This document shows, one piece after another, positions 7,061 through 31,621 of a stretch of DNA of 32,710 nt. The stretch lies in IMG/VR virus record IMGVR_UViG_2711768052_000004, positions 1 to 32,710 of that record; one strand, given 5' to 3'. The notes beneath the pieces are model-generated. The model was given only the letters and a program-made list of their open reading frames with translations. It was not told the DNA's origin and searched no databases. The translations under genes were made by a program, and so were the position numbers. The number at the start of each line of letters is the position of its first letter. The stretch's first letter is position 1. The stretch comes from a virus. Lineage: Duplodnaviria; Heunggongvirae; Uroviricota; Caudoviricetes.

Positions 7061-8500
7061 CTATGATTCACCATTTACCCTTTTATTCTCAGAGCAATAT
7101 AACCATTCAGAAACATTAATTATAGCCTCCGGATGCGAGTGTGTTGAGTGTATTAATATACCATCATTCTGTGGAGCAAATTTAATAACTTTATGATCTC
7201 CAGCTGGAGTTTCAGATGATGCAATAAAAACTTCCGGGCAAAATATTAATCGCAAATCTCCATAAGCTATGGCCTTAGCTACAGCCAACCAAAATGAAAA
7301 AATCGCAACTGGTATTGCTGCAATAAGTAAAACATGAGGAACATCCTTTGATGGTTTCAACCTTTGCCAAATGTGAGAAATAGAAGTTAATACAAAGCTT
7401 ACTAATAATACTATAATCCATGATTTTTCTTCAGGATAGAAGAACCATATTAATACACTCATGGAAATATAAAATAGGTAGCTTAAAACTGCTGACCAAT
7501 GTGTTAGCTTTTTATGACTTACTTGAGCTTTTTTTAGCTGGGAAAGAATTGCAAAACATCCTTCGTGAAGTGAACTTACAAATCTTAGGCCTGAATCGGC
7601 TTCATCACCAATTGCGTGATAAATTTCAACATTCCTAAAATCAACCGCTTCACAGTGCTCGCCACTCTCAACTTCCTGCAAAAATTCTTTTTTATATTTT
7701 TTGGAGATTATAATTTCTGCAAATATTGAAACAAAAAAAATTACTGCTGCATAATTAATATTATATAGATTCAAAGGTACAAAAAATACTGCAAGTAACA
7801 ATTGAATGGCCAAAGTTCCGCTAATATCAATAAGATTAATTAAAGCACCTGACGTTCTTTTTATCCTACGTCGAAAGATGAACGGTGGTGACAAAAGACA
7901 TACGCCTTGAATTTTTTTTGCAATATCACTTCGTAAATAAGACATTTCTCTTACAATAGCTGCCCCATGGCTATGTGCAATAATATAATTGTATTTTGCA
8001 GGAGAGTTATCAATATGCATTCCTAATTGATATGCCGCTTGTTTACGAGAGGATGCAGAGTTTTTGCCATCCCATTTAAATCGAGATATACCAATATTGG
8101 GATTCCTTGAGTTAATTGATTTGCACATTTTTGACTCAGGTTGTGTCCAAGATGCATTCGTCTCGAATGTTCCATGAACAAGGTGAACAATAACATCTTC
8201 TGATTCAGCATTAGCAATATCATTCACGGTTGTTGTTTTAGTCGAGTGGAATATAAAACGCCATGCCGTTGAAATCCCTTTTTGCCAGACAACATAATGG
8301 ACGAGTGCAACGATTAGTATTATTGCGACTGGAATAGTTACAAGGCCTATGGAAATAGTTTTAATTATATACTGAAGAACTCCTTTATTATGGGTGAAAA
8401 AATAATATGCTACAGAGGAAATAAAGAGCACTAGCATAGCCAACATTATCCCAGACAAGCCAAATAATATAATATATTTAATAAAATCGTGATTTCCCAT
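7061..8500 (-). CDS. Cargo protein (479 aa): polytopic membrane protein with a lipase/esterase-like domain; candidate defence effector
   Basis: Long AT-rich ORF in the G-FI slot; about seven hydrophobic helices by eye; soluble segment carries VHLVHGTFE and IIAHSHGAAIV (an A-x-S-x-G nucleophile-elbow-like pentapeptide); AAGG RBS upstream of ATG at 8498-8500. Confidence 0.8.
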   Translation of the reverse strand: MGNHDFIKYIILFGLSGIMLAMLVLFISSVAYYFFTHNKGVLQYIIKTISIGLVTIPVAIILIVALVHYVVWQKGISTAWRFIFHSTKTTTVNDIANAESEDVIVHLVHGTFETNASWTQPESKMCKSINSRNPNIGISRFKWDGKNSASSRKQAAYQLGMHIDNSPAKYNYIIAHSHGAAIVREMSYLRSDIAKKIQGVCLLSPPFIFRRRIKRTSGALINLIDISGTLAIQLLLAVFFVPLNLYNINYAAVIFFVSIFAEIIISKKYKKEFLQEVESGEHCEAVDFRNVEIYHAIGDEADSGLRFVSSLHEGCFAILSQLKKAQVSHKKLTHWSAVLSYLFYISMSVLIWFFYPEEKSWIIVLLVSFVLTSISHIWQRLKPSKDVPHVLLIAAIPVAIFSFWLAVAKAIAYGDLRLIFCPEVFIASSETPAGDHKVIKFAPQNDGILIHSTHSHPEAIINVSEWLYCSENKRVNGES

Positions 8501-13148: not shown

Positions 13149-13774
13149 AGAGGACTCCCGGTTGTGCCGCCGCTGTCGCCGGGGTGTTTATGGGTATGCA
13201 GTACCTTACCGTTTGATGAGAGTTCACCGCCGGTGTGTTCAATGTTGCCGCGCATCGTCCCGCCCTTCTGCACTTCCAGCGTGCCGGTAATCAGCCTGTT
13301 GGTGCAGACCACCTCCGGTGTGTCCAGGGTGATGCGGGTTGATGCTTTCACCATGACCACCGGCACCGTGGCAGTAACAGAATCAGAAGCCGTCACGCTG
13401 GCCGTTTTAATTCCGCTTACCATGAGTGCACTGGTTTCGGGTTCATATTCAATCACCGCCCCGTCAGGGAAACGGATATGCAGGGCATCCGCCGACGCAG
13501 ACGGCGCGGGGTTATCGCCGGAATAAATCCCCGGCAGAACGAACGCCGTGTCGAGTTCACCACCCACGGCCAGAATCAGCACCTGTTCCCCCACGGAAGG
13601 TGCCCACCATGTGCGCGAACGCCCGGCGCGATGGGTCAGCCACTGAAGCCAGTCGGTGCACATGCCGCCGGTCTGCACACGGCAGCGACCGGCATTAAGG
13701 TCGGTTTCGACGATAATGCCAGTGCGAATCATATTGCGTATAAAGCGAAGAATTTCATTGTATTGTGCATTCAT
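13145..13774 (-). CDS. V: Baseplate spike/hub protein gpV (209 aa from the chosen start)
   Basis: ORF track gives 235 aa; the Met of MNAQYNEILRFIRNMIRTGIIVETDLNAGRC (ATG at 13772-13774) matches the conserved gpV N-terminal region; stop overlaps W start. Confidence 0.85.
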   Translation of the reverse strand: MNAQYNEILRFIRNMIRTGIIVETDLNAGRCRVQTGGMCTDWLQWLTHRAGRSRTWWAPSVGEQVLILAVGGELDTAFVLPGIYSGDNPAPSASADALHIRFPDGAVIEYEPETSALMVSGIKTASVTASDSVTATVPVVMVKASTRITLDTPEVVCTNRLITGTLEVQKGGTMRGNIEHTGGELSSNGKVLHTHKHPGDSGGTTGSPL

Positions 13775-13860
13775 TCGATAATAATGATTCTGTACAATCT
13801 CGAAGTAAATCACACCACGATTTCTGGTGCACAGAACAACAAGGGACAACAAAATCCATT
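13775..13860. promoter_or_regulatory. Compressed divergent control region: expected late promoter P_V plus the cargo-gene promoter
   Basis: 86-bp spacer between divergently oriented V and the plus-strand cargo gene; plus-strand TACAAT at 13796-13801; P_V placement is positional inference from P2. Confidence 0.35.
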
Positions 13861-14934
13861 ATGAGTACTTACTTTTTCTCGTCAGAAACAATGAAAGAAT
13901 TGTTCAAAGATTATCTGGTCTTTTTGAACACGCTGACTCCCAGCACAAACTTTGAATCAAACAGAAACAAAATAATTGCTCAAGCAATAAACTTCATTTC
14001 CGAAAACCCTGAAGATTGGGACAAAAAATCCCAGTACAACATTGCTATGATTGGCGACACCTTTAAAAGTTTCTTAAGAGAGAAGGGAGAAGATAACAAC
14101 AGCATCAACCTTATATTCACTTGCTTTTTTAGATTTATCATTGAACCAAGCATTCTCTCTCCGGAAATAGAGTCTCACTTTTCACCACTAAGAACCATCA
14201 AGGATTTTGCTCTGTATAACTATAATGAATTCGATGAGCGGAGCAGAGCACAGATAGACTTTTCTCTTAGAGAACTGCCATTAGCAATGGTTAAAGAAGT
14301 TTTAAGCTCCAGCAATGTTGACACATATAAAAAATACATTGATAGTTTAAACGAAGGGCGTCAATTTTTCGAAAAGTGCGACTCCTTCTTAAAGGAGCAA
14401 CATGCCAAAATAGAGTCAATTAAAGAGTCATTAAAAGGGTATGAGGTCGCATTTAATTTTGTTGGATTGTTTGAAGGCTTTAATTCACTTGGCAAAAAGA
14501 AAGAAAGTGAAATCATGCTATCAAGAATAATTCTTATCATCTTGGCTATAATCATTCCCTCCCCGCTGATATACTATGGAATGCATAAATTACCAGCTCT
14601 CGAAACGACAAATGCTGCCACATATTTTATGTCAGCACTACCTTTTGCATCAGTTACATTGATTTTCATGTATTACTTTAGAGTTGTACTGCTAAATCAT
14701 ATATCGTTACGAACTCAGATTATGCAAATAGAACTCAGAAAGAGCCTTTGTCAGTTCATTCAGAGTTATAGCGACTATTCCTCAGAGATAAGGAAAAACA
14801 ATCCGGAAGCGCTTTCAAAATTCGAAGACGTAGTATTTTCAAACATCATGCTATCCGATGATAAGATACCATCTACATTTGATGGCATTGAGCAAATAGC
14901 ATCGTTAATCAATTCATTAAAAAATGGAAAGTAA
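13861..14934 (+). CDS. Cargo protein (357 aa from ATG 13861): soluble N-terminal domain plus two predicted TM helices; function unknown
   Basis: AT-rich ORF on the opposite strand to the flanking late genes, in the S-V slot; hydrophobic IMLSRIILIILAIIIPSPLIYYGM and ATYFMSALPFASVTLIFMYYFRVVLL; start is uncertain (in-frame ATGs at 13765, 13861, 13891). Confidence 0.75.
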   Translation: MSTYFFSSETMKELFKDYLVFLNTLTPSTNFESNRNKIIAQAINFISENPEDWDKKSQYNIAMIGDTFKSFLREKGEDNNSINLIFTCFFRFIIEPSILSPEIESHFSPLRTIKDFALYNYNEFDERSRAQIDFSLRELPLAMVKEVLSSSNVDTYKKYIDSLNEGRQFFEKCDSFLKEQHAKIESIKESLKGYEVAFNFVGLFEGFNSLGKKKESEIMLSRIILIILAIIIPSPLIYYGMHKLPALETTNAATYFMSALPFASVTLIFMYYFRVVLLNHISLRTQIMQIELRKSLCQFIQSYSDYSSEIRKNNPEALSKFEDVVFSNIMLSDDKIPSTFDGIEQIASLINSLKNGK

Positions 14935-18404: not shown

Positions 18405-18503
18405 GACTACCTCTGAAAAGTCGGGCGGTGGACGCCGGTGCAGTGTCAGGTGATTCACCCTCACTGACCGGCGTGCCGCCCTGGCGCGGGGCGCATTCGG
18501 TTG

Positions 18504-19247
18504 TTAACTGGCTTTCTTTTTCGGGCGTCCACGTTTTGCCGGTGTCACGCTCCGGGTCTTACGCGGGGCGCGGGTGGCCGCTTTGGGCTGCGGCTCCGGC
18601 TTCGGTTTCAGCTCCCGCTCCAGTCGTTCAATCTCTTTTTTGACGCCTGCCTGACAGTCGAGCTGTGTCGCACGTTGCAGGTGCGCCAGCGCACCGGCGG
18701 CATCACCAGCGTCACGCAGAAACAGACCGGTGATTTTGTGCAGCTTTGCGCGCACTTCATCAGGCATGTCAGCCGTGGCGGTCAGTTCAAGGGTCTCCGT
18801 CAGCAGGCGGGTATCCACGGATTCACCGGCAGCGTGAGCGCGCATGGCCGCAAGCGCCACCTCCTCGGTGAACATGTACGGCGGGGTGCGGCGGTGTTTA
18901 CCCGGCATGGTCAGACCGTACTTCAGGGCATAACGGGCAATCTCCAGCGCACCGGCAATATCGCCGGTATCCAGACGCCACAGCATGACCGTCATCAGAA
19001 TGTCATCCTGTGCACCTTTGCCCTGCTCCAGCACGCCGTTCACCCACGGCAACCAGAACGGCAGCAGTTCGCGTTTTTTCGCGGCCTTCAGCTCTTTTGA
19101 ATAAATTGCTTTCAGTGTGCGCTGGTCTGCGGCCAGCTTGACCAGCATCTGCTCATAGACAGTTGCATGTCGCAGCGGGGCGGCTTCCCGCTGCGCGGTC
19201 ATCGCTGCCGAGACCCGCATCATGTGGCGCTGTGCGGGACTCGTCAT
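18504..19247 (-). CDS. M: Terminase small (endonuclease) subunit gpM (247 aa)
   Basis: 247-aa ORF between N and L; basic C-terminal tail. Confidence 0.9.
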   Translation of the reverse strand: MTSPAQRHMMRVSAAMTAQREAAPLRHATVYEQMLVKLAADQRTLKAIYSKELKAAKKRELLPFWLPWVNGVLEQGKGAQDDILMTVMLWRLDTGDIAGALEIARYALKYGLTMPGKHRRTPPYMFTEEVALAAMRAHAAGESVDTRLLTETLELTATADMPDEVRAKLHKITGLFLRDAGDAAGALAHLQRATQLDCQAGVKKEIERLERELKPKPEPQPKAATRAPRKTRSVTPAKRGRPKKKAS

Positions 19248-19250
19248 CGG

Positions 19251-20324
19251 TTACGCTCCCGGCTCTGCGGTCGCCTTAGCCGGTGTGGAGAAATCACCGA
19301 CCTTAATTTTTTCCACCAGACAACCGGCGGCGTAGTCTTCCACCACGTAATCAATGTTCATTGACTCGTAGTTCTCCACGCGGTCGAGTTTCGGGTTTTC
19401 CTCAATCACGCGGCGATGGCTGTCATCCATGTAGTAGATGGACAGGTTTTCCAGCTTCGTGATGAGCATCGCATCCGCCGGGAAGTACGGGACGCGTACC
19501 GCCGGCAGGTTACCGATGCGTTTCTGGCTGATGATGACGTCAGCGGCCAGCATCTCGCTGTTGTCCTGCTCCTTGTTAACGATGGGGAAATACTTGTCCG
19601 CCAGTAGCTGACGCCCCACAATCACCACAAGGTCAGGGTCTTCCTGATACCACGGCTCAATCAGGTTGTTGGTCGCATCCATCACCAGTGCATCGAGGCT
19701 GGCATAATCACCGCCCTTACCCACGCGGATGACCTCAGAGGTCGTGTGACCTTCCTCGTCAGTGACCTTGCTCATCACGCGCGCCGGGGCTTCATTGCGG
19801 TATTTCTGCAGCCAGCCGACCGCCACATCCTGCAGCATCGGATTACTGTTGCGGTCAGAGGTTTCGGCACGCTTCACGCCGTTAAAACCGGCCATGATGA
19901 AATCAAGGGACTGGCGTTTGATAATGGCGTTACGGATACGGAGCTGGAAATCCTGATAACGCGCCCACAGGTCAAGCGTTTTGTAGCGGATATAAAAATC
20001 GAAGTTAACCTGGTCGCATTCGTACTTGTTGGACGCCAGCTTCGAGAAGTCCTTCGGCTGACGCTCGGTGCCACCGGCAGTGTCGGTCGTGCTGGCAATG
20101 GGGCCGGTGACACCAATACCAATTTTTTCCCCTTTCATTTCGCTGACCGGCACAATATTGATGCGGGTCAGAAAGTCGGAAGACTCCTGCATGGTGTCCA
20201 TCAGGGTCTGGGTGACCGAAGGTTCAACGGTGAATTTTTTCGACACATCACCGGCGTCGATGCCGTTCAGTTCGGCAACACGGGACAGGTAGGCATTAAA
20301 TTTAAAGCGGGTTTCCTGGCGCAT
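19251..20324 (-). CDS. N: Major capsid protein gpN (357 aa)
   Basis: 357-aa ORF between O and M. Confidence 0.92.
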   Translation of the reverse strand: MRQETRFKFNAYLSRVAELNGIDAGDVSKKFTVEPSVTQTLMDTMQESSDFLTRINIVPVSEMKGEKIGIGVTGPIASTTDTAGGTERQPKDFSKLASNKYECDQVNFDFYIRYKTLDLWARYQDFQLRIRNAIIKRQSLDFIMAGFNGVKRAETSDRNSNPMLQDVAVGWLQKYRNEAPARVMSKVTDEEGHTTSEVIRVGKGGDYASLDALVMDATNNLIEPWYQEDPDLVVIVGRQLLADKYFPIVNKEQDNSEMLAADVIISQKRIGNLPAVRVPYFPADAMLITKLENLSIYYMDDSHRRVIEENPKLDRVENYESMNIDYVVEDYAAGCLVEKIKVGDFSTPAKATAEPGA

Positions 20325-20382
20325 ATTTTTTCCTGAAATTAAGGGTTAATCGTGAAGGTTTGCCCGGACTGGCTGACGCCGG

Positions 20383-21237
20383 TCAGCAGTTCGTCATCAG
20401 GGCGTCACCACCACCGCCGGTGGCTTTGCTGCGGCGCTGCTGGGTCAGACTTTCGGTGTGGTCGAGACTGTTTTTCAGGCGGGTGAATGCCTGGCTGGTT
20501 TCATCCGCCCTGTCAGTCACATCCTGCTTAAGTGCAGAAAAGGCGGTTTCCATCTCTGCGAGGCGCTGCTCAGTGGCGCTCAGTTTTTCCTGCACATGTT
20601 CAGCGACAGCGGTCACCGCTTCATGCACATCATTCAGACGGGCGTCATCGCTGGCCTGTTTGCGGCCAAAAATGGATTTCACCTTTTCGGTCAGGGCGGT
20701 GAACACGGTTTCAGGCAGGTCTTCAAATTCCAGCTCAACAGGCGTTGCCACTGAAATCAGGTTTTCAGGGCTTAATTTGAAGCGGTTCAGGGGGTTGTGT
20801 TTTGCCGTGCGGCAGAATTCCAGGTATTCCGTGCCGAGGCTTGCCGGGTCATCGGTGACGGCCAGCCCCACCAGATAACATTTGCCGGTGTTGGCAAAGT
20901 TCGGCTGAATTTCCATTGAGGTGTAGACCTTCTGCGCGGCCTTGTTCATCGCGATAAGGTCATCGGTCGGGGTGATTTTCGCAAACAGCGCCCATTTGCC
21001 TTTCAGCGCCGAATCATCGTCAATCTTTTCGGCCTTCAGTTCGGCCACATCGCCATAACGCTTAAAAATACCGTCAGGCAGGATGCCGCGCAGATGTTCC
21101 AGGTTAATGCGGCAACCATAGACTCGCGGGTCAAAGGTTTCGGCCATTTCCTGAATATCCTGCGCACTGATGACACGCCCGTCACAGGTGTCACCCTCAA
21201 CGCCGATACGAAAGAATTTTGAGACTTTTTTTGCCAT
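20383..21237 (-). CDS. O: Capsid scaffolding protein gpO (284 aa)
   Basis: ORF track gives 306 aa; the internal Met (MAKKVSKFFRIGVEGDTCDG, ATG at 21235-21237) gives 284 aa. Confidence 0.9.
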   Translation of the reverse strand: MAKKVSKFFRIGVEGDTCDGRVISAQDIQEMAETFDPRVYGCRINLEHLRGILPDGIFKRYGDVAELKAEKIDDDSALKGKWALFAKITPTDDLIAMNKAAQKVYTSMEIQPNFANTGKCYLVGLAVTDDPASLGTEYLEFCRTAKHNPLNRFKLSPENLISVATPVELEFEDLPETVFTALTEKVKSIFGRKQASDDARLNDVHEAVTAVAEHVQEKLSATEQRLAEMETAFSALKQDVTDRADETSQAFTRLKNSLDHTESLTQQRRSKATGGGGDALMTNC

Positions 21238-21410
21238 TGTCAGGAGTCCTGAATAGTGATTAGAGGAGTCACATGTCGGCATCAGTTTCCCGACGATGCG
21301 CATCCTCCGCCATCAGTCCCGGATGGCTTATCACTGACACAACAGCACCTTAGCGAATCGCGGGGCGCGACTCAGTAGCCTTGCCGTGTATTCATCACGG
21401 CGAGGTATTC
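21238..21410. promoter_or_regulatory. Divergent late promoter region (expected P_O and P_P, Ogr-activated)
   Basis: 173-bp spacer between divergent O and P; positional inference from P2; no binding site verified. Confidence 0.5.
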
Positions 21411-23183
21411 ATGACCATCACCACAGACACCACTCTTTTACACGACCCGCGTCGTCAGGCGGCGCTGCTGTACTGGCAGGGGTTTTCCGTGCCGCAGATT
21501 GCCGCCATGTTGCAGATGAAACGCCCGACGGTGCAGAGCTGGAAACAGCGCGACGGCTGGGACAGCGTTGCCCCCATCAGCCGTGTCGAAATGAGTCTGG
21601 AAGCGCGACTGACCCAGCTCATCATCAAACCGCAGAAAACCGGCGGTGATTTCAAGGAAATTGACCTGCTGGGACGCCAGATTGAACGACTGGCACGGGT
21701 AAACCGCTACAGCCAGACCGGCAACGAGGCAGACCTTAATCCGAACGTCGCTAACCGCAACAAAGGCGGGCGGCGCAAACCGAAAAAGAATTTTTTCAGT
21801 GACGAGGCCATCGAAAAGCTGGAGCAGATTTTCTTTGAGCAGTCTTTCGAATATCAGTTGTACTGGTATCGCGCCGGGCTTGAGCACCGCATCCGCGATA
21901 TCCTGAAATCCCGCCAGATTGGCGCAACGTTTTATTTTTCCCGCGAGGCGCTGCTGCGCGCCCTGAAAACCGGCCATAACCAGATTTTTCTGTCGGCCAG
22001 TAAAACGCAGGCGTATGTGTTCCGTGAATACATCATCGCCTTTGCCCGTCTGGTTGACGTTGACCTGACCGGTGACCCGATTGTCCTGGGCAATAACGGC
22101 GCAAAACTGATTTTTCTCGGCACAAACTCCAACACTGCGCAGAGCCATAACGGCGACCTGTACGTCGACGAGATTTTCTGGATCCCGAATTTTCAGGTGC
22201 TGCGTAAGGTGGCATCAGGTATGGCCTCACAGAGTCACCTGCGCTCGACCTATTTCTCCACCCCGTCCACGCTGGCGCACGACGCCTACCCGTTCTGGTC
22301 GGGTGAACTGTTCAACCGGGGACGCGCCAGCGCCGCCGAACGCGTGGAAATCGACGTCAGTCATAACGCCCTTGCCGGTGGGCTTCTCTGTGCAGACGGC
22401 CAGTGGCGGCAGATTGTCACCATTGAGGACGCCCTGAAAGGTGGCTGCACGCTGTTCGACATTGAACAGCTCAAACGCGAAAACAGCGCCGACGATTTTA
22501 AAAACCTGTTCATGTGTGAATTTGTTGACGACAAGGCGTCGGTGTTCCCGTTCGAGGAGTTGCAACGCTGCATGGTCGACACGCTGGAAGAATGGGAAGA
22601 CTATGCACCCTTTGCCGCCAATCCGTTCGGTTCCCGCCCGGTATGGATTGGTTACGACCCGTCACACCGTGGCGACAGCGCCGGATGCGTGGTGCTGGCA
22701 CCGCCGGTGGTGGCCGGTGGCAAATTCAGAATACTTGAGCGTCACCAGTGGAAAGGCATGGACTTTGCCACTCAGGCTGAATCCATCCGCAAACTCACCG
22801 AAAAATATAACGTCGAATACATCGGTATTGATGCCACCGGCCTCGGTGTCGGCGTGTTCCAGCTCGTGCGCTCGTTCTATCCCGCCGCGCGCGATATCCG
22901 CTACACGCCGGAAATGAAAACCGCAATGGTGCTCAAGGCAAAAGACGTTATCCGCCGTGGCTGTCTGGAATATGACGTCAGCGCCACCGACATCACCAGC
23001 TCGTTTATGGCTATCCGCAAGACCATGACCAGCAGCGGACGCAGTGCCACCTATGAGGCCAGCCGCAGCGAGGAAGCCAGCCACGCCGACCTCGCCTGGG
23101 CGACCATGCACGCCCTGTTAAATGAGCCACTCACCGCCGGTATCAGCACTCCGCTGACATCCACCATTCTGGAGTTTTACTGA
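21411..23183 (+). CDS. P: Terminase large (ATPase) subunit gpP (590 aa)
   Basis: ORF track gives 600 aa from 21381; ATG at 21411 (MTITTDTTLL) has GAGG upstream and gives 590 aa. Confidence 0.9.
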   Translation: MTITTDTTLLHDPRRQAALLYWQGFSVPQIAAMLQMKRPTVQSWKQRDGWDSVAPISRVEMSLEARLTQLIIKPQKTGGDFKEIDLLGRQIERLARVNRYSQTGNEADLNPNVANRNKGGRRKPKKNFFSDEAIEKLEQIFFEQSFEYQLYWYRAGLEHRIRDILKSRQIGATFYFSREALLRALKTGHNQIFLSASKTQAYVFREYIIAFARLVDVDLTGDPIVLGNNGAKLIFLGTNSNTAQSHNGDLYVDEIFWIPNFQVLRKVASGMASQSHLRSTYFSTPSTLAHDAYPFWSGELFNRGRASAAERVEIDVSHNALAGGLLCADGQWRQIVTIEDALKGGCTLFDIEQLKRENSADDFKNLFMCEFVDDKASVFPFEELQRCMVDTLEEWEDYAPFAANPFGSRPVWIGYDPSHRGDSAGCVVLAPPVVAGGKFRILERHQWKGMDFATQAESIRKLTEKYNVEYIGIDATGLGVGVFQLVRSFYPAARDIRYTPEMKTAMVLKAKDVIRRGCLEYDVSATDITSSFMAIRKTMTSSGRSATYEASRSEEASHADLAWATMHALLNEPLTAGISTPLTSTILEFY

Positions 23184-24217
23184 TGAGCAAGAAAAAAGGG
23201 AAAACACCGCAACCTGCGGCAAAAAAAATGACCGCCAGCGCCCCGAAAATGGAGGCATTCACCTTTGGTGAGCCGGTGCCGGTACTCGACCGCCGTGACA
23301 TTCTGGATTACGTCGAGTGCATCAGTAACGGCAGATGGTATGAGCCACCGGTCAGCTTTACCGGTCTGGCAAAAAGCCTGCGTGCTGCCGTGCATCACAG
23401 CTCACCGATTTACGTCAAACGCAATATTCTGGCCTCGACATTTATCCCGCATCCGTGGCTTTCCCAGCAGGATTTCAGCCGCTTTGTGCTGGATTTTCTG
23501 GTGTTCGGTAATGCGTTTCTGGAAAAGCGTTACAGCACCACCGGTAAGGTCATCAGACTGGAAACCTCACCGGCAAAATATACCCGCCGTGGCGTGGAGG
23601 AGGATGTTTACTGGTGGGTGCCGTCCTTCAACGAGCCGACAGCCTTCACGCCCGGCTCCGTGTTTCACCTGCTGGAGCCCGATATTAATCAGGAGCTGTA
23701 CGGCCTGCCGGAATATCTCAGCGCCCTTAACTCTGCCTGGCTGAATGAGTCGGCCACGCTGTTCCGCCGCAAGTATTACGAAAACGGCGCACATGCCGGA
23801 TACATCATGTACGTCACCGATGCCGTGCAGGATCGCAACGATATCGAAATGCTTCGCGAAAACATGGTGAAGTCGAAAGGCCGCAACAACTTTAAAAACC
23901 TGTTTCTCTATGCCCCGCAGGGGAAAGCCGACGGCATTAAAATTATCCCGCTCAGTGAAGTGGCGACGAAGGACGATTTTTTTAATATCAAAAAAGCCAG
24001 CGCCGCTGACCTGCTGGATGCGCACCGCATCCCCTTTCAGTTGATGGGCGGCAAGCCGGAGAACGTCGGGTCGCTGGGTGATATTGAGAAAGTGGCAAAG
24101 GTCTTTGTCCGCAATGAGCTTATCCCGCTACAGGACAGGATCCGCGAGATAAACGGCTGGCTCGGTCAGGAGGTCATCCGCTTTAAAAACTACTCACTGG
24201 ACACTGACAACGGCTGA
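23183..24217 (+). CDS. Q: Portal protein gpQ (344 aa)
   Basis: 344-aa ORF whose start overlaps the P stop. Confidence 0.92.
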   Translation: MSKKKGKTPQPAAKKMTASAPKMEAFTFGEPVPVLDRRDILDYVECISNGRWYEPPVSFTGLAKSLRAAVHHSSPIYVKRNILASTFIPHPWLSQQDFSRFVLDFLVFGNAFLEKRYSTTGKVIRLETSPAKYTRRGVEEDVYWWVPSFNEPTAFTPGSVFHLLEPDINQELYGLPEYLSALNSAWLNESATLFRRKYYENGAHAGYIMYVTDAVQDRNDIEMLRENMVKSKGRNNFKNLFLYAPQGKADGIKIIPLSEVATKDDFFNIKKASAADLLDAHRIPFQLMGGKPENVGSLGDIEKVAKVFVRNELIPLQDRIREINGWLGQEVIRFKNYSLDTDNG

Positions 24218-24222
24218 ACATC

Positions 24223-24244
24223 GCCGCCTGCGGGCGGCTTTTTT
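24223..24244 (+). terminator. Rho-independent terminator of the P-Q operon
   Basis: GCCGCC-TGCG-GGCGGC followed by TTTTTT, starting 6 nt after the Q stop. Confidence 0.75.
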
Positions 24245-24409
24245 ACACCCCGTCATCACGGCCTCACACGCTCACCACCGCACAAAACACCCCGCAGACA
24301 CACCAACGCCCCGGCAGGCCGACTAAATGCCATCACGACGCGCTCAGACGCAAAAAAACTGTCACTACCACGCCGTTACGTTGGCCACATAAAATGTGGC
24401 CAACTCCAG

Positions 24410-25411
24410 TTATAATAATTTGTCCAGCCTAGCTGAAACAATACCTAGAACAACTGTTGAAACTATATTTACCACCACTCTTAAAATACTCTTCTTTCGC
24501 TTCTTACTATATTCATCATACAACCTCTCATCACCCTTATTTAATACAATGTACGATGCTGGAGTATAACCATCAATTAATCTCTCTAGGCCTTCACCTA
24601 AATGCTCCGCTAACAATGGGATAATAGAAAACGCACCAAGAAAGAGCATTAAAAATTTTACTAACCTTTCTTTATCACCAATATCAATATATTCACCAAC
24701 ATTGTACAGTGCATAACTTAAAATCAATATAGAAAAAGAAAACCGCATAATCAGTGGAATTAAATACGATATCCTTTGAGCTTGCTGTATCAATGGTATT
24801 TTGTTTGTAACTCTTTGACATCCTTCAACCCATTCTTTAAATGCTTCGATAAAACCTCTAGCCACTACATAATCAGCATATTCAACAACTATTTCTGCTG
24901 AACTGGTGAGCATGAATGCAACAAAACGCCCCCTAATGAAAGGTGGTGCATCTTCTTCCATTTCTTTCTGCATAGCAATTCTTGATGCTAATTTAACAGT
25001 AACTTCATAGTGGTTAGGTAATGATGCCCCTGTCGATAAAATTGCAAAGTTATATTTTAAAATTACACTAATTGTTGGACTACTTCCCGCACTACTCGAC
25101 ATTGCAAACTTATCAAAAGAGGTAAACTGTTCCTTTCTATCTTTTGAATGTAAAATAGTTACCGTTTCATTTTTCGATATAATATTATGAACATCACACA
25201 ATTGATTTATTTTTTGATGAACGCTTCTTATCTCATCGATATTTATAAGTAAATTCTCAGAGGTTCTCTGCCTTATTGTTTCTGTTGTTCCCGTTATATG
25301 TTGATAAATTTGCTGATAAATACGAATGCTAGTATTAATATCCCGAGAAGCAGGTAACCCACTATTAACCCCATTATTTTTTTCATTTGACTCATCAATT
25401 ATAATACTCAT
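24410..25411 (-). CDS. Cargo protein (333 aa): soluble N-terminal domain plus three C-terminal TM helices; function unknown; candidate defence effector
   Basis: AT-rich ORF between the cos-like site and Q; AGGA 5 nt upstream of ATG at 25409-25411; hydrophobic ISYLIPLIMRFSFSILILSYALY, LVKFLMLFLGAFSIIPLLAEHL, ILRVVVNIVSTVVLGIVSA. Confidence 0.8.
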   Translation of the reverse strand: MSIIIDESNEKNNGVNSGLPASRDINTSIRIYQQIYQHITGTTETIRQRTSENLLINIDEIRSVHQKINQLCDVHNIISKNETVTILHSKDRKEQFTSFDKFAMSSSAGSSPTISVILKYNFAILSTGASLPNHYEVTVKLASRIAMQKEMEEDAPPFIRGRFVAFMLTSSAEIVVEYADYVVARGFIEAFKEWVEGCQRVTNKIPLIQQAQRISYLIPLIMRFSFSILILSYALYNVGEYIDIGDKERLVKFLMLFLGAFSIIPLLAEHLGEGLERLIDGYTPASYIVLNKGDERLYDEYSKKRKKSILRVVVNIVSTVVLGIVSARLDKLL

Positions 25412-25657
25412 TTTATTTCCTATAAAAACTTAACCAGCAAATTAAACAAAAAGAACACAAGGTTATTATTTAGCGTGCAACAACACGATTGCACAACCAA
25501 ATGCCACGTGTACGAATCTAACCATTCTCTTATATTAAATCAAGTCAATACAACCTAATAGACACATTTTTTATCGCAGTTATACACTTGGTTAACAATA
25601 TGCGGATAGTTACTCAAATCAAATTACATATATGACAAAATGAACAATTGCGCGCAG

Positions 25658-25676
25658 TGCTATCCCCGCCTCGCCT
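25658..25676. other. cos-like site (19-nt cohesive-end sequence)
   Basis: GTGCTATCCCCGCCTCGCC is the reverse complement of GGCGAGGCGGGGATAGCAC, an 18/19 match to the P2 cohesive end as I remember it (GGCGAGGCGGGGAAAGCAC). Confidence 0.65.
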
Positions 25677-25890
25677 GCCCGCTTTATGGGTCGGTTTTAA
25701 TGCAGGTGCACGAATACACCGGAGGCGCGCCGGCACTGGTGGCGCTCAGACGCAACAGGGGAGGAAAACGCATGCAATTGAATGCATTTCTAGGCACACC
25801 TAAAAATGAAAAAATGTTATGACAATTAATCATTTTAAACACACTGATTAAGGGTAGAATTCTCCTAGTAAAATCATAGAAAAACCGCTA

Positions 25891-26820
25891 TCAAACCAGG
25901 CTTTTGCCTTGCTTCATTTTTTTAGATGAGTCTAAAAATTTGAAATTATCATTAGATGAAAATATTCTTTCTGCGGTATGCCGAATGACTGAAGTATTGA
26001 AGACCGCAGCCTGCTCCTCATTACAACTGAATACACCCTCATGACCATCAAACTCGCCCGCCAAAAGAAGGTTTTTTGATACTGGGAACAAAACTAAAGT
26101 GTCTTTTACACCAAACCCGGGGGAATAAGGGCCTCGTGCTAATTCAGGATTAGTCCACATTAAGCAAACTGGGTTATCTGAAGTTATAAATGACCCTTGC
26201 CCATCAGATATGGTCATAAGTGACCAGTTGCGTTGATGCAACAACTTGGTGATAACAGGTACACATTTCATTTCCATATCTATCATGAACTCTCTGATTA
26301 CATTGATTTCGAAATTATCCCCATCCACAAAATTTTTAATTTTTTCGTAAGCGAGATCATATGGCAAAGACTCACCCATTTCTTTCTCATAAGCTAATTT
26401 ACAATCGTCCCAACGCTCAGCCGAACTAACTGAGGATTTCATGATAAACTTTGCTATTTGTTTCAATGGAGATGATAAATGTTCTCGCTGAGCAGGCGTA
26501 CGTATTGCCAATAAGGAAATAAACTCCAGAATAACATCTTTGGTTTCGCCTGAAAACTCGCCCCCCTCCTCAAGTTTTCTTAAATGAGTAGCGACACTGC
26601 CTTCAAACTCTGCAAGAGAACTCTCGAGATAGTTTGGGTCAACTCCATCCAATTCTAATCGGTTGAAATCTCTAACCCCCCCGACATTGCGAGTATTACT
26701 CTCAAAAGTTTTGCGCTCCTTTAAATCTATTACAGTTAATTTTGATTTTTTCCCCCCATTACTTGTAAACCCTTTCAAATAACATTGGGATAAAAAATGA
26801 TGATGCCTTGCAACACTCAT
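25891..26820 (-). CDS. Cargo protein (309 aa from ATG 26820) with DUF4238-like N-terminal motif; candidate single-gene defence protein
   Basis: AT-rich ORF between A and the cos-like site (the P2 tin/old slot); N-terminus MSVARHHHFLSQCYLKGFT fits the H-x3-Q-x-YL-x2-F signature I associate with DUF4238; GGAG 6 nt upstream of the chosen ATG. Confidence 0.75.
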   Translation of the reverse strand: MSVARHHHFLSQCYLKGFTSNGGKKSKLTVIDLKERKTFESNTRNVGGVRDFNRLELDGVDPNYLESSLAEFEGSVATHLRKLEEGGEFSGETKDVILEFISLLAIRTPAQREHLSSPLKQIAKFIMKSSVSSAERWDDCKLAYEKEMGESLPYDLAYEKIKNFVDGDNFEINVIREFMIDMEMKCVPVITKLLHQRNWSLMTISDGQGSFITSDNPVCLMWTNPELARGPYSPGFGVKDTLVLFPVSKNLLLAGEFDGHEGVFSCNEEQAAVFNTSVIRHTAERIFSSNDNFKFLDSSKKMKQGKSLV

Positions 26821-26923
26821 ACTCAGCTCCGTTATGGCTATAATCGCATAAATAATAAGCACTTATATTGCAATCATCTAGTTAAATACACAATATTTAT
26901 GACTCCGAAATTTCATTAAATCA

Positions 26924-29095
26924 CTATTGATAGGTTTTACCAATTAGTGCCAGCTCGAAATGGATGCGTGGAATCTGCGAACGTTCAGCCTTTGTCATCC
27001 GCCCTGATGGCGCTATCTGGTACGGTTTTAATGGTTCGCAGTTTCTTTGTTGCCAATTCGGTCTCGGTGCACCATGTTTTAATGCACTCCTGAGCACCGT
27101 CACAACTTCCGGGTCATCCCATCCGATAACACCACTATCAACCAGATTTAACACCGCTGCGGCATGCTCAGACGGTGTAGGGTGCATAACCGGAACGTCA
27201 CCGCCGGTGAACTTTCCACAGTTATTGACAGGACTCCGAGGCGCGGCGATGCCGCTTTTTAAAGTCAAAGGCTCAACGACCGGAACTTTCGGCACAATGC
27301 GCCAGTCCGTCGTTCTGGTGATATGAATATGACGCGCGCCGAGATGCGGCGCGTAAATGCCGACCACTCTCTCGACTTCTTCCTCGTACTCGTTAACTTC
27401 ATCCGACGGACTACGGGCGACCCTGACAGTCTGACAATCGCGCGGGACATTTGCCCCACCCTGCGCGCTGATATACAACGCAAAATCACCACTGTCTGCG
27501 GCGGCGCGTGCAGCCTCGACTCGCTCGTCAAACTCATCAGCAATGCTGACGCCGCGAGGCAATTTTCGTAGTTCACGGTAAGCCCCCATTGTCGGCAGAC
27601 CAACCGTTTTAAATTGTGGGATGCGCCACGTTGACGCCCATGCGGTAACAGCCGCAGCAGTGTCTTTCAGCGGTCTGCCGGTATCGTTATCGAGCTGACC
27701 ATCCAGTGCATAGCCATCGATGTTTTTTGAGATGTATTTCGCGATATACCCCGCAGCACCGCCCTGGTTAAGGTGTTTTGCCTGAAAACGGTTTCGCGCG
27801 GCTCCTCTTTCGTCGCCATCCTCTTTGAGCGCATAGCGACGCATGATTTCGATAATCTGGTTACGCTGGCGTGGATTACAAAAAAGCATCATATGCCAGT
27901 GCGGCGTTCCGTCGTGGTGTGGCTCGACGACACGCAAACCGTAGACCTGTAAATCATTATCCTTGAATGCCGTGCGCATCAGGCTCCAGATATGGCAGAG
28001 ATAACGCTGCGCATCCTTTGGATTAAATGCCTCATCGTTCCAGCCGTGATTTAGCTGGACGGTTTTACTTTCGCCTTTTCCGACCTGACGTGTCGGGTGA
28101 TACTTTGACGGCGCGGTAAGCGTGATAAACATCCCCACATCACCCTCTGCGGCGGCGTAACGCTCAATACCGGCAATGGTGTTCATCAGCTCCATCCGGC
28201 GAATTTCAGGATTAGAAATACTGCCCATCACCTTACTGATAAGGTCGATGCGCTCGCCGGTTTCCCTGTTTTCAAGGTCACACGATTTAAGAAATTCCAG
28301 ATTTGCCTGGCGGCGTGCACGCACATCACGAATGGCATGTTTACTGGCATAAGGAGAACGGTCTTTATTCACCTCCCCGACAGCAATCAGTAACGCCTCA
28401 TGCCAGCGCATACGCTGGCCTTTGAGCTGATGAGTCCACCACTCATCGTTAAACAGACGGGCAATGGCAGAATATGCCTGCCTCGTGGTCATCTGTCCTT
28501 TACGGTATTTTTTCCAGTAAAGCGGGGAAATATTGAAAGCACGTGCAGCGCCAGCAACATGACCATAGAGGTGAGCCTGCGCCTCATCCGTAAACAGCGA
28601 TTCTTTTTCGCCATGTGCATCCACCCAGGCATCGCTGAGTTCCTCATACATCATGAAAAGCTGCGATGAGATACGGGCGGCAAACTTTTTCAGCTCCTTG
28701 TCATTCATTCCCGGCAGGCGCGCATAGTGGTCACGCTCTGCCAGAAACAGCAACGACGCGTCGGTGTTCATTTCATGGCGCTGATTCACACGCTCAATGC
28801 GCGGCCATAAACGACGCTGAAAAGTGGATGTGAGGAAATAAAACCCGTGCACCGGGCTTTTATTGCGCCGGATGTAGTCATAGCGTGAAGTAAACAGCGA
28901 GCGCAAAAAGTAAGGCAGGCGGTTAATCGTGGATAAAACACCTTGCACCTGACGCATCTCGTCACGTGTAAGGGGTCTTTCGCGCCCGACGGCCTCGCGT
29001 GGCGCGTTCCATGCATAAGCACCGGTAAACGTCTCACCGGTGCCTGCGGCAAATGCTGACGGAGGGACAAAATGCCCGGAGGCTTTAACGGTCAT
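26924..29095 (-). CDS. A: Replication initiation protein gpA (rolling-circle nickase family)
   Basis: 737-aa ORF; likely start at the Met of MTVKASGHFVPP (ATG at 29093-29095), with 29137 as an alternative; position at the end of the early operon. Confidence 0.88.
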   Translation of the reverse strand: MTVKASGHFVPPSAFAAGTGETFTGAYAWNAPREAVGRERPLTRDEMRQVQGVLSTINRLPYFLRSLFTSRYDYIRRNKSPVHGFYFLTSTFQRRLWPRIERVNQRHEMNTDASLLFLAERDHYARLPGMNDKELKKFAARISSQLFMMYEELSDAWVDAHGEKESLFTDEAQAHLYGHVAGAARAFNISPLYWKKYRKGQMTTRQAYSAIARLFNDEWWTHQLKGQRMRWHEALLIAVGEVNKDRSPYASKHAIRDVRARRQANLEFLKSCDLENRETGERIDLISKVMGSISNPEIRRMELMNTIAGIERYAAAEGDVGMFITLTAPSKYHPTRQVGKGESKTVQLNHGWNDEAFNPKDAQRYLCHIWSLMRTAFKDNDLQVYGLRVVEPHHDGTPHWHMMLFCNPRQRNQIIEIMRRYALKEDGDERGAARNRFQAKHLNQGGAAGYIAKYISKNIDGYALDGQLDNDTGRPLKDTAAAVTAWASTWRIPQFKTVGLPTMGAYRELRKLPRGVSIADEFDERVEAARAAADSGDFALYISAQGGANVPRDCQTVRVARSPSDEVNEYEEEVERVVGIYAPHLGARHIHITRTTDWRIVPKVPVVEPLTLKSGIAAPRSPVNNCGKFTGGDVPVMHPTPSEHAAAVLNLVDSGVIGWDDPEVVTVLRSALKHGAPRPNWQQRNCEPLKPYQIAPSGRMTKAERSQIPRIHFELALIGKTYQ

Positions 29096-29360
29096 ATGAG
29101 CCAAAAGCCTCTGAACAACGCTTGCTGAGTTGCTCAACCTGCGCGTTTAAATCAGCAAAAGACTTTGCGCTTCCGGTCAGAATATCGTGATGCATCAGGC
29201 CGGAAACGAGCTGGCTTAATTTCGGGTAATAACCAACCACCGCCAGCCATTCCTGACCGGCGTTTTTACCGCTTTCCGCTCTCTTTTTCTCGTGGAGAAT
29301 AAACTGAAAGCTGTCACTGGTAACGACATAACGTTCGCCAATTTCAATACGAATACTCAT
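29085..29360 (-). CDS. Early-operon small protein (91 aa), P2 orf83-position analogue
   Basis: ORF translationally coupled to the upstream ORF (ATGA overlap) and overlapping the A start. Confidence 0.6.
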   Translation of the reverse strand: MSIRIEIGERYVVTSDSFQFILHEKKRAESGKNAGQEWLAVVGYYPKLSQLVSGLMHHDILTGSAKSFADLNAQVEQLSKRCSEAFGSYDR

Positions 29361-29581
29361 GCCGTTCTCCGGTAATGTTTGTTTTTTGCTTCAAAGACTG
29401 CCTGACAGGAAACACAACGCGTGGCTGACGGATAAGCCGCACGACGGGCAGCAGGTATTGGCGCGTCACACTCTTCGCAAACCAGCGCAGAAGCACCGCA
29501 ATGTTTTACCCTTGCCGCGTTAATCTGGCGCTCCAGTAATTCAGCCTGTTGTTCCTGAATAAAATCTATGTTGTCCGGCAT
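29357..29581 (-). CDS. DksA/TraR-family C4 zinc-finger protein (74 aa), P2 orf82-position analogue
   Basis: CEECDAPIPAARRAAYPSATRCVSCQ contains a CxxC-N17-CxxC motif typical of TraR/DksA-like proteins. Confidence 0.7.
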   Translation of the reverse strand: MPDNIDFIQEQQAELLERQINAARVKHCGASALVCEECDAPIPAARRAAYPSATRCVSCQAVFEAKNKHYRRTA

Positions 29582-29886
29582 TACCAGTTCCTTTTGTCGT
29601 TCAGTTTTTTAAATTCATCAGCGCAATAGCTGGCGATTTCTGTCGTTAATTTCGTCAGTTCATCCACGGAGGAGATTTGCTTGTGAAATACAGCGCGTTT
29701 AACAAGTAAATTGACCACATCAGACAGGAGATTTAATTCGTTCTGATAAATCGCGATAACAGACTCAGTTATTTCGCGTTTTTCTTTATCAAGACCAAGT
29801 TGAATAAGAGATAAATCGCCATTTTTCATAACGGCGATTTTTAAGGCGTTATTCAGTAATACAACTGAACGAGAACAGGACATCAA
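29581..29886 (-). CDS. Early-operon hypothetical protein (101 aa), P2 orf81-position analogue
   Basis: ORF with start overlapping the stop of the upstream ORF (ATGA). Confidence 0.6.
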
Positions 29887-30107
29887 AGCACCTCCCCGCG
29901 AGACAATCCGATATTGTGAAATTTTTCCGACTCCTGACTGAGCAGCTCGACTATCTCCACGCGGGATAACTCCGCCTTTGTGATGTGGCGAATCATGGCG
30001 TCAAGATGAGAAGAAAAGCGCGTCGCTGCGTCGGCCTGTGCTTCGGTTCTGGCCTGTTGCAGCAGTAATGCGTATTTACCGCACTGATTTTCAGAAACTG
30101 TATGCAT
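29883..30107 (-). CDS. Early-operon hypothetical protein (74 aa from ATG 30107), P2 orf80-position analogue
   Basis: ORF track gives 85 aa; the internal ATG at 30105-30107 has GGAG 6 nt upstream. Confidence 0.55.
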
Positions 30108-30170
30108 GACTTTCTCCAGGCAAAAAGAAGCCCCGCACAATTAAGTGCGTTAAAAACTCTGGTTAATTAC

Positions 30171-30671
30171 TTAATGCAGATATTGCTCTGGTTTTACCGA
30201 CGTCAGAATTGTCGGTGCATACTCAAACAGACTGAATAATTCACGTAATGCACGGAATAAAGCATCACGCCAGTAACATGACTCTTCATTAATTCGCCAG
30301 TATGGCTGGTTGAATTCTTTTTCAGTCAATCCGGCATGCATAAATAAAGTACGACGCTGACTGACTGTTAAAAAACTAATATATGCATACTCACTTGCGC
30401 CAACCTGACGGCGTTTTGAGAATGCATCACGCAATTCATCAATTGCACATACCAGTCGTTCACGTTCGACGTCGTTCATTTCTTCAAAACGCATCGTTGC
30501 GTGACGCTGTTTTAACTGAGCATGGAAGCAAACCGTTAACCGTTCGCGCTCCATCATCTGATTATAATAATCACATGTATCCTGCCAGCGAGGAACGGCA
30601 AGATGCTTACCAATTATCCGGCGCATAGCTGCTGGCTGTTTTTCAACGAGATTGAGCGTCATCACTGTCAT
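30171..30671 (-). CDS. B: Replication protein gpB (166 aa)
   Basis: Start MTVMTLNLVEKQPAAMRRIIGKHL matches the P2 gpB N-terminus as I recall it; ATG overlaps the stop of the upstream small ORF. Confidence 0.85.
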   Translation of the reverse strand: MTVMTLNLVEKQPAAMRRIIGKHLAVPRWQDTCDYYNQMMERERLTVCFHAQLKQRHATMRFEEMNDVERERLVCAIDELRDAFSKRRQVGASEYAYISFLTVSQRRTLFMHAGLTEKEFNQPYWRINEESCYWRDALFRALRELFSLFEYAPTILTSVKPEQYLH

Positions 30672-30838
30672 TTCCATACCCTCCGGCTTTTCAGAAAGGT
30701 CAGAGCCTTCTTTAACGGACTCTGTTTTTTGGTGCGGATAATGATTCCCTTACGCCCCTTACCGTGGGTGATGGTGAAGTCAATCGCCCTGGGGCTTTCA
30801 TTACGCAATAGCTGAGCAATACAACGAGGCTCGTTCAT
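30668..30838 (-). CDS. Small early protein (about 56 aa), P2 orf78-position analogue
   Basis: ORF between cox and B; chosen ATG at 30836-30838 has AAGGTGG 4 nt upstream; longer in-frame starts would overlap cox. Confidence 0.5.
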   Translation of the reverse strand: MNEPRCIAQLLRNESPRAIDFTITHGKGRKGIIIRTKKQSPLKKALTFLKSRRVWK

Positions 30839-30848
30839 CCTTTCCACC

Positions 30849-31205
30849 TTAAGCCGCACGGCCATGTCTTGATTTGCTGTAACTAATGCGATTTTTCCAG
30901 TCATGCCATTCTGTCGGAGCTTCATCAACTAGTTGGGCTGCGTACCTGTCCCACTCACGGCGATTAATCCATAACTCAGCATGACCGCCCGGCTTTAATG
31001 GGTCCGTCATATAAAAGGCTGGTAACTTGCCTGCTTTCGCCATTTCAGCAACAGCACGAGGCGTCTTACCGATGTAAAGAGCAAATCCCTCTTTCGAGAG
31101 CAAATCCGACGGTGCGGCTGCAAGTTTGATGTCACATTTTTTACTTTTTGTGAGATCAGATACTTTTTCTCCAACATCGTTATTCATTTCTGATCCAATA
31201 CTCAT
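30849..31205 (-). CDS. cox: Cox/Apl-like excisionase and early transcriptional regulator (118 aa)
   Basis: First gene of the early operon, divergent from C; HTH-like segment FALYIGKTPRAVAEMAKAGKLP; GAGGA upstream of ATG at 31203-31205. Longer than P2 Cox as I recall it. Confidence 0.65.
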   Translation of the reverse strand: MSIGSEMNNDVGEKVSDLTKSKKCDIKLAAAPSDLLSKEGFALYIGKTPRAVAEMAKAGKLPAFYMTDPLKPGGHAELWINRREWDRYAAQLVDEAPTEWHDWKNRISYSKSRHGRAA

Positions 31206-31309
31206 TTTGATATCCTCAACTTTGGTGCCATTCAACCAGAGCTATTTGAAGCCGCTCTGCGTTGTTCTGGCGTGTCGCATGCAACATAAATTACGAGATA
31301 CGACAATTC
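31206..31309. promoter_or_regulatory. Immunity switch region (expected face-to-face promoters Pe and Pc with C and Cox operators)
   Basis: 104-bp spacer between divergent cox and C; architecture inferred from P2/186; individual promoter elements not resolved. Confidence 0.5.
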
Positions 31310-31621
31310 ATGTCAAATACACAAATCACATCTCAAGCAGAGAAACTCGCACTTATTCGGGAGTCAGAAAGAATGACAAGGAAGCAAGTTGCTGAATTAA
31401 CTGGAATTAACTACAACACCTATGCTGGATATGAGCAGGGAAAAGTAAAGATGTCTTTTGACGCAGGCATGAAATTTTTCAAGCCAGAAAGATTTCGCAA
31501 GTACCGTGACTGGTTCATGTTTGATGAAACTGATCCCGCTGGCGGACAAATAGCCCCGGCGCTCGCGCACATTGGGCAAGACTCAACAACCTTGCACCAC
31601 TCAGACCAAAAGACTGGCTGA
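31310..31621 (+). CDS. C: Immunity repressor C (103 aa)
   Basis: ORF track gives 119 aa; the internal Met (MSNTQITSQAEKLALIRESERMTRKQVAELTG) gives an HTH protein whose C-terminus GGQIAPALAHIGQDSTTLHHSDQKTG closely resembles P2 C as I recall it. Confidence 0.85.
   Translation: MSNTQITSQAEKLALIRESERMTRKQVAELTGINYNTYAGYEQGKVKMSFDAGMKFFKPERFRKYRDWFMFDETDPAGGQIAPALAHIGQDSTTLHHSDQKTG

Follow-up and report, generated by a model that had tools for sequence, protein, structure and literature searches.

The gene that fills the slot between replication gene A and cos in this P2-like prophage is, with a probability of about 90%, a prophage copy of the known single-gene anti-phage system named Rst_DUF4238 in DefenseFinder and DUF4238-Pers in PADLOC; this figure covers both the identity of the gene and its role. 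The finding is already known, being a known system in a known place. In P2-like prophages Rousset et al. (2022) delimited a cos-adjacent defence hotspot between gpA and gpQ, from which systems were cloned under their native promoters, among them DUF4238 from E. coli TA007, cloned as pFR101 (PMC9122126). Carried by a low-copy plasmid together with its native upstream region, the TA007 allele was enough by itself to give E. coli strong T7 resistance (PMC9122126). This is the single-gene anti-phage DUF4238 system from phage and satellite hotspots to which the first-pass annotation of this DNA had referred. The window, which is the whole stretch of 32,710 nucleotides that was analysed, consists otherwise of a P2-like prophage with terminase, portal, capsid and tail genes, cox, repressor and integrase. 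The features that define the slot are as follows.

26,924 to 29,137, minus strand: replication gene A (Phage_GPA, E 2e-124), the flank of the slot upstream of the DUF4238 gene.
26,821 to 26,923, minus strand: spacer of 103 nt that separates the DUF4238 start from the end of gene A, AT-rich, 29% GC.
25,891 to 26,820, minus strand: DUF4238 gene, 309 aa plus stop, ATG at 26,820, with Pfam, PADLOC and PHROG matches.
25,657 to 25,675, minus strand: P2-type cos 19-mer, GGCGAGGCGGGGATAGCAC, with one mismatch, bounding the gpA-side cargo slot.
24,410 to 25,411, minus strand: ORF of 333 aa between cos and the portal gene, 32.8% GC, with three membrane segments predicted in its C-terminal part.
23,183 to 24,217, plus strand: portal gene Q (Phage_portal, E 2.9e-14), annotated in phage pro483 and in E. 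coli prophages, the far flank of the hotspot.

The DUF4238 gene had been described as encoding an AT-rich protein of about 309 aa, and both its length and its composition agree with that description: its GC content is 38.9%, whereas gene A has 52.9%, the portal gene 53.8% and the window as a whole 50.5%. The protein begins with MSVARHHHFLSQCYLKGF, and a GGAG ribosome-binding site lies at 26830-26827, 6 nt 5' of the ATG. An alternative start at the in-frame GTG 26862, which would give 323 aa, finds no support, because the PADLOC and PHROG profiles both have 309 positions and were matched from 1 to 309; it is also at odds with public annotations of identical proteins, which have 309 aa. The protein has no hydrophobic segment and is predicted to be soluble.

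The place of the gene between gene A and a cos-like site, likewise proposed from the first reading, is confirmed on both sides by the Phage_GPA flank and the cos 19-mer. Gene A ends at 26924, 103 nt upstream of the DUF4238 start; its ORF has 737 aa from the first TTG and its product is annotated as 723 aa in near-identical prophages. The P2 cohesive-end 19-mer with which cos was located has one match in the window against 0.01 expected by chance. The interval thus has the Phage_GPA and Phage_portal flanks, the cos site and the GC drop (to 31-40%) of the gpA-cos-gpQ hotspot, and other cargos fill the same gpA-gpQ place in related prophages. Between gene A and the portal gene there are just two ORFs, DUF4238 and the one of 333 aa. 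Pfam and PADLOC searches of both slot ORFs found no Old- or Tin-like protein, in keeping with the earlier remark that neither tin nor old was recognisable here; both ORFs are also too short to be Old, which has about 586 aa. P2 itself carries in this slot tin and old, prophage-encoded exclusion genes (PMC9122126). The question of what occupies the tin/old slot is settled for the window: it is a known, experimentally supported anti-phage gene.

Three further observations concern the surroundings of the slot and the rest of the prophage. An exact 14-nt direct repeat, GCGCTCAGACGCAA, at 24340-24353 and 25742-25755, flanks the 333-aa gene together with cos and perhaps marks a past recombination or belongs to duplicated sequence around cos. 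Two AT-rich islands of 33-36% GC lie elsewhere in the window, each holding an ORF that has no match in Pfam or PADLOC. One ORF, of 479 aa (7061-8500, minus strand), adjoins the tail-fibre and tail-fibre-assembly genes, probably where P2 has its Z/fun cargo slot. The other, of 389 aa (13765-14934, plus strand), is on the strand opposite to the surrounding ORFs and is a third unexplained cargo gene.

Membership of the DUF4238 family, which had been read from a short motif with a Pfam search named as its test, is borne out by profile searches. Pfam DUF4238 (PF14022) matched with an E-value of 4.2e-39 and 135.1 bits against a cut-off of 27, aligning residues 7-291 with positions 2-280 of the 281-position model, and no competing Pfam family was found on the protein. 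The PADLOC model DUF4238-Pers (PDLC03000) matched over its whole length (1-309/309; E 1.5e-219, 725.5 bits), as did phrog_29785 (E 3e-223), which is in the function unknown category; NCBIfam gave no match. The protein is 100% identical to a cluster (P0001) found on at least 1000 contigs, with the annotation 'DUF4238 domain-containing protein' in Enterobacteriaceae, and to gp11 of Escherichia phage pro483 (NC_028943), the sole isolated phage with the identical protein in a collection of 50,697 records. It is also letter-identical to the 'DUF4238' entry in Table S5B of Rousset et al., which has the value 80 (PMC9122126), read here as an occurrence count. Alignment with the pFR101 protein (Table S2), the comparison with a characterised defence protein that the first-pass annotation had proposed, gave 284 of 309 identical residues (92%) and 98% positives, with 25 substitutions and no gaps.

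The similarity to the tested clone extends into the upstream DNA. About 85 nt before the DUF4238 ATG are common to the window and the pFR101 clone, including the ribosome-binding site and a 31-nt block of the spacer (26872-26902) that, in an alignment to the insert, perfectly matches the native-promoter fragment. A consensus sigma-70 scan did not find a promoter-like site in the spacer 26821-26923, which we presume to hold a putative promoter of the DUF4238 gene's own. In the lysogen, transcription of the gene would start from this promoter in the 103-nt AT-rich spacer.

Among 1.84 billion cluster representatives, a profile search picked up 7,970 relatives at E<=0.001. Nearly all of the best 150 of these 7,970 relatives have 290-340 aa, and ten longer or atypical relatives, eight of them of 336-390 aa, contain no additional Pfam domain. 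All ORFs within 6 kb were clustered at 48 loci, 44 from different species plus 4 others. Only the DUF4238 ORF (47 of the 48 loci) and antisense shadow ORFs were recurrent; no neighbour family was present at more than 4 of the 48 loci, and none was fixed in position or orientation. Among the 146 nearest neighbours the commonest Pfam family, GNAT, appeared 4 times, and PADLOC matches among neighbours were scattered single cases (GajA, ThsA, ThsB, DpdF, PDC-S39, RT, PsyrT and UzuA). The DUF4238 gene therefore stands alone, without an obligatory partner, which is new in this analysis. In P2-like prophages the identical DUF4238 protein is always at the gpA-cos position and is usually the sole cargo between gpA and the portal gene. 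One E. coli prophage locus (L007, 7261-9699) carries the identical DUF4238 gene followed by a gene for an 812-aa SIR2_2 protein before the portal gene, and is a further case of stacked hotspot cargo.

The contexts of more distant homologues vary. A Vibrio homologue (P0011) is in a prophage and adjoins a KAP NTPase; one E. coli homologue (P0005) is in an integrative island and adjoins type I RM and GmrSD, and another (P0036) is in an integrase-bearing element; a Pseudomonas homologue (P0045) is in a variable region, with Gabija nearby on two short metagenome contigs; and a Citrobacter homologue (P0104) is in an island with putAbiC. Homologues were also found on 25 plasmids, 16 of which are predicted to be conjugative. 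Defence genes near homologues include KAP NTPase, type I RM plus GmrSD, Gabija, Thoeris, DpdF and putAbiC. These contexts are consistent with a mobile stand-alone defence gene. In Kluyvera intermedia (L030 5580-8945, NZ_JAKCNS010000008.1), the yegS/yegQ site holds a degraded P2-like prophage. All that is left of it is the 3' end of gene A, the DUF4238 gene, whose DNA is 97% identical to that of the window, cos, and a gene for a 555-aa fused AAA_21-DUF4435 protein (PARIS-like); this remnant looks like a host keeping the defence hotspot after loss of the phage.

The same contexts bear on whether the gene is cargo with a role other than defence, such as interference with the P4 satellite or a P2 relative, an addiction toxin or a host-physiology factor. 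The hotspot also carries non-defence items such as partition systems and cytolethal distending toxin, and the TA007 allele was active against only 1 of 8 phages (PMC9122126). Many neighbours of distant homologues are, moreover, housekeeping genes, so that a defence role may not hold for the whole DUF4238 family. Against such a role for the gene in the window, an allele with 92% identity has a direct phenotype in T7 plaque assays (PMC9122126), and the gene recurs beside other defence genes and on mobile elements. We consider non-defence cargo improbable, and the gene is best read as a copy of the known anti-phage system. Since the slot holds an anti-phage gene, the lysogen would likely resist T7-like phages, by analogy with the tested allele.

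The 333-aa gene across cos is a second cargo gene of the hotspot. It has no match in Pfam, PADLOC, PHROGs or NCBIfam, and compared with pro483 the window has 1291 bp of inserted DNA here (24359-25649), which contain the gene and stop 7 nt short of cos. P2-like prophages of E. coli often carry the gene (597 index blocks). The exact protein was found beside at least 6 different gpA-side cargos, among them DUF3850, AAA_13, a reverse transcriptase and a hypothetical protein of 440 aa, or beside none. Its adjacency to the DUF4238 gene on the same strand, the AT-richness of both genes and its three predicted membrane segments would suit a two-gene system made of a cytoplasmic sensor and a membrane effector. 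The pairing also exists in public assemblies, in one locus (L022; GCA_022971535.1, JAGMQW010000001.1 64886-77887) that matches window positions 18410-31411 at 99.98% over 13 kb and in 4 similar places, and Table S5A of Rousset et al. contains a 'DUF4238 + hypothetical' arrangement (PMC9122126). However, the two genes are 479 bp apart with cos, the cut site of the packaged genome, between them, and the TA007 DUF4238 gene was active by itself (PMC9122126). The majority of identical DUF4238 copies have no 333-aa neighbour, just as the 333-aa gene keeps company with other cargos or none, and the two genes never occur together in 5,426 complete E. coli RefSeq genomes, although each is found there without the other. 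A two-gene system is therefore largely refuted and very improbable. The DUF4238 gene and the 333-aa gene are independent modules in two sub-slots flanking cos, the latter being a candidate accessory or defence gene.

How the DUF4238 protein acts as a single-gene system was approached through its conserved residues. Rousset et al. called the molecular function of DUF4238 unknown (PMC9122126), a 2024 survey could assign Rst_DUF4238 to no known domain family, and later literature, in which we did not find a mechanism for DUF4238, merely lists the system. Among 73 relatives of 27-41% identity, H8, Y14, L15, F18, R112, R197, W199 and N275 are invariant, and H7 (96%), D32, R50, D51, E66, E73, R107, E183 and D215 are at least 90% conserved; Q12 is invariant among closer relatives only. 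The H-x3-Q-x-Y-L-x2-F motif on which the family assignment had first been based is borne out and belongs to the N-terminal block, where conservation is highest. The conserved blocks are 5-20, 44-56, 101-112, 211-220 and 241-257, and the freely variable stretches are 81-90, 121-160, 221-230 and 261-270, the second of these lying in a wider, more variable part (about 115-175). In all, about 15 polar residues are kept down to about 30% identity, which is also new in this analysis. R107-x6-H114 resembles the Rx4-6H motif of HEPN by eye; this candidate was rejected because H114 is not conserved in the alignments.

An AlphaFold2 model built on an alignment of 37 sequences is confident and compact (pLDDT 88.8, pTM 0.86). 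Its parts are the N-terminal motif with a beta-hairpin, a loop that is conserved, six helices in residues 64-195 and, at the C-terminus, a region rich in beta structure. Foldseek found nothing in the PDB at E<=0.001, phmmer and profile searches of PDB chains gave no meaningful match, and the sole Foldseek match among viral models was an uncharacterised protein of Stenotrophomonas phage Smp131. Because the fold has no solved relative, the structure gives no reading of function.

From its sequence the protein would be a soluble enzyme or ligand-binding protein. That it is an enzyme is a tentative reading to which we give rather less than an even chance, and it is suggested by the retention of H7, H8, Y14, D32, R50, D51, E66, E73, R107, R112, E183, R197, D215 and N275 down to about 30% identity. 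The mixture of histidine, acidic and arginine residues could, with the same reserve, make up a site that needs a metal and acts on a substrate bearing phosphate, whether nucleic acid or nucleotide. We propose that the soluble cytoplasmic protein may both detect infection by T7-like phages and stop it, with phage specificity perhaps carried by the variable stretches, including the helical ones. DUF4238 would then combine sensor and effector in one self-contained enzyme, a type that has so far not been described in immunity, with the conserved His-His/Asp-Glu/Arg residues as its site; this fuller proposal is possible but doubtful. As to the outcome, we lean towards abortive infection over direct interference, in line with most single-protein systems.

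The protein might instead have no catalytic activity. It could block a component of T7 (for example RNA polymerase, DNA entry or the capsid) by stoichiometric binding, or act as a sensor working through a host factor. The narrow specificity for T7 would suit a protein that recognises one particular phage protein, and no catalytic fold was recognised in the structure comparison. A sensor role would also fit a validated E. coli TIR system that is reported to contain a DUF4238 domain and in which the TIR NADase site is essential (PMC11350192). On the other side, neither a TIR fusion nor a recurrent TIR neighbour was seen in the sampled relatives and the 48 loci; the single TIR-like neighbour, ThsB, is accompanied by a ThsA match, and the two are read as a putative Thoeris system. 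Interfaces with phage proteins usually evolve fast, and about 15 charged or polar residues that are invariant or nearly so at 27-41% identity are more typical of a catalytic or ligand-binding site. A non-catalytic blocker or sensor is the main alternative, a possibility that we hold with considerable doubt.

The window does not extend the range of known kinds of system. The DUF4238 family is large and has a validated defence phenotype, and its stand-alone architecture together with the list of invariant residues gives concrete targets for mutagenesis. If the protein is indeed a sensor-effector enzyme, this abundant and easily expressed P2-borne allele would be a convenient entry to its mechanism, helped by the clean T7 phenotype shown for the 92%-identical allele (PMC9122126).

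Four known systems can be compared with the one in the window. The E. coli TIR system (Nat Commun 2024) involves the same domain family and is experimentally validated as anti-phage, but it depends on the TIR NADase site (PMC11350192), whereas the window protein has neither a TIR domain nor a TIR neighbour. P2 tin and old share the slot by cos and the general role of excluding other phages; their proteins are unrelated to DUF4238, Old being an ATPase-TOPRIM nuclease (PMC9122126). Phage pro483 encodes the identical protein as gp11 in a locus with 98-99% DNA identity, but it does not have the 1291-bp insertion with the 333-aa gene. The pFR101 system resembles that of the window in family, length (309 aa), gpA-cos/gpQ slot, proximal upstream block, ribosome-binding site and single-gene organisation, and differs in that the DNA farther upstream than the conserved block is not the same and that the window has a second cargo gene across cos.
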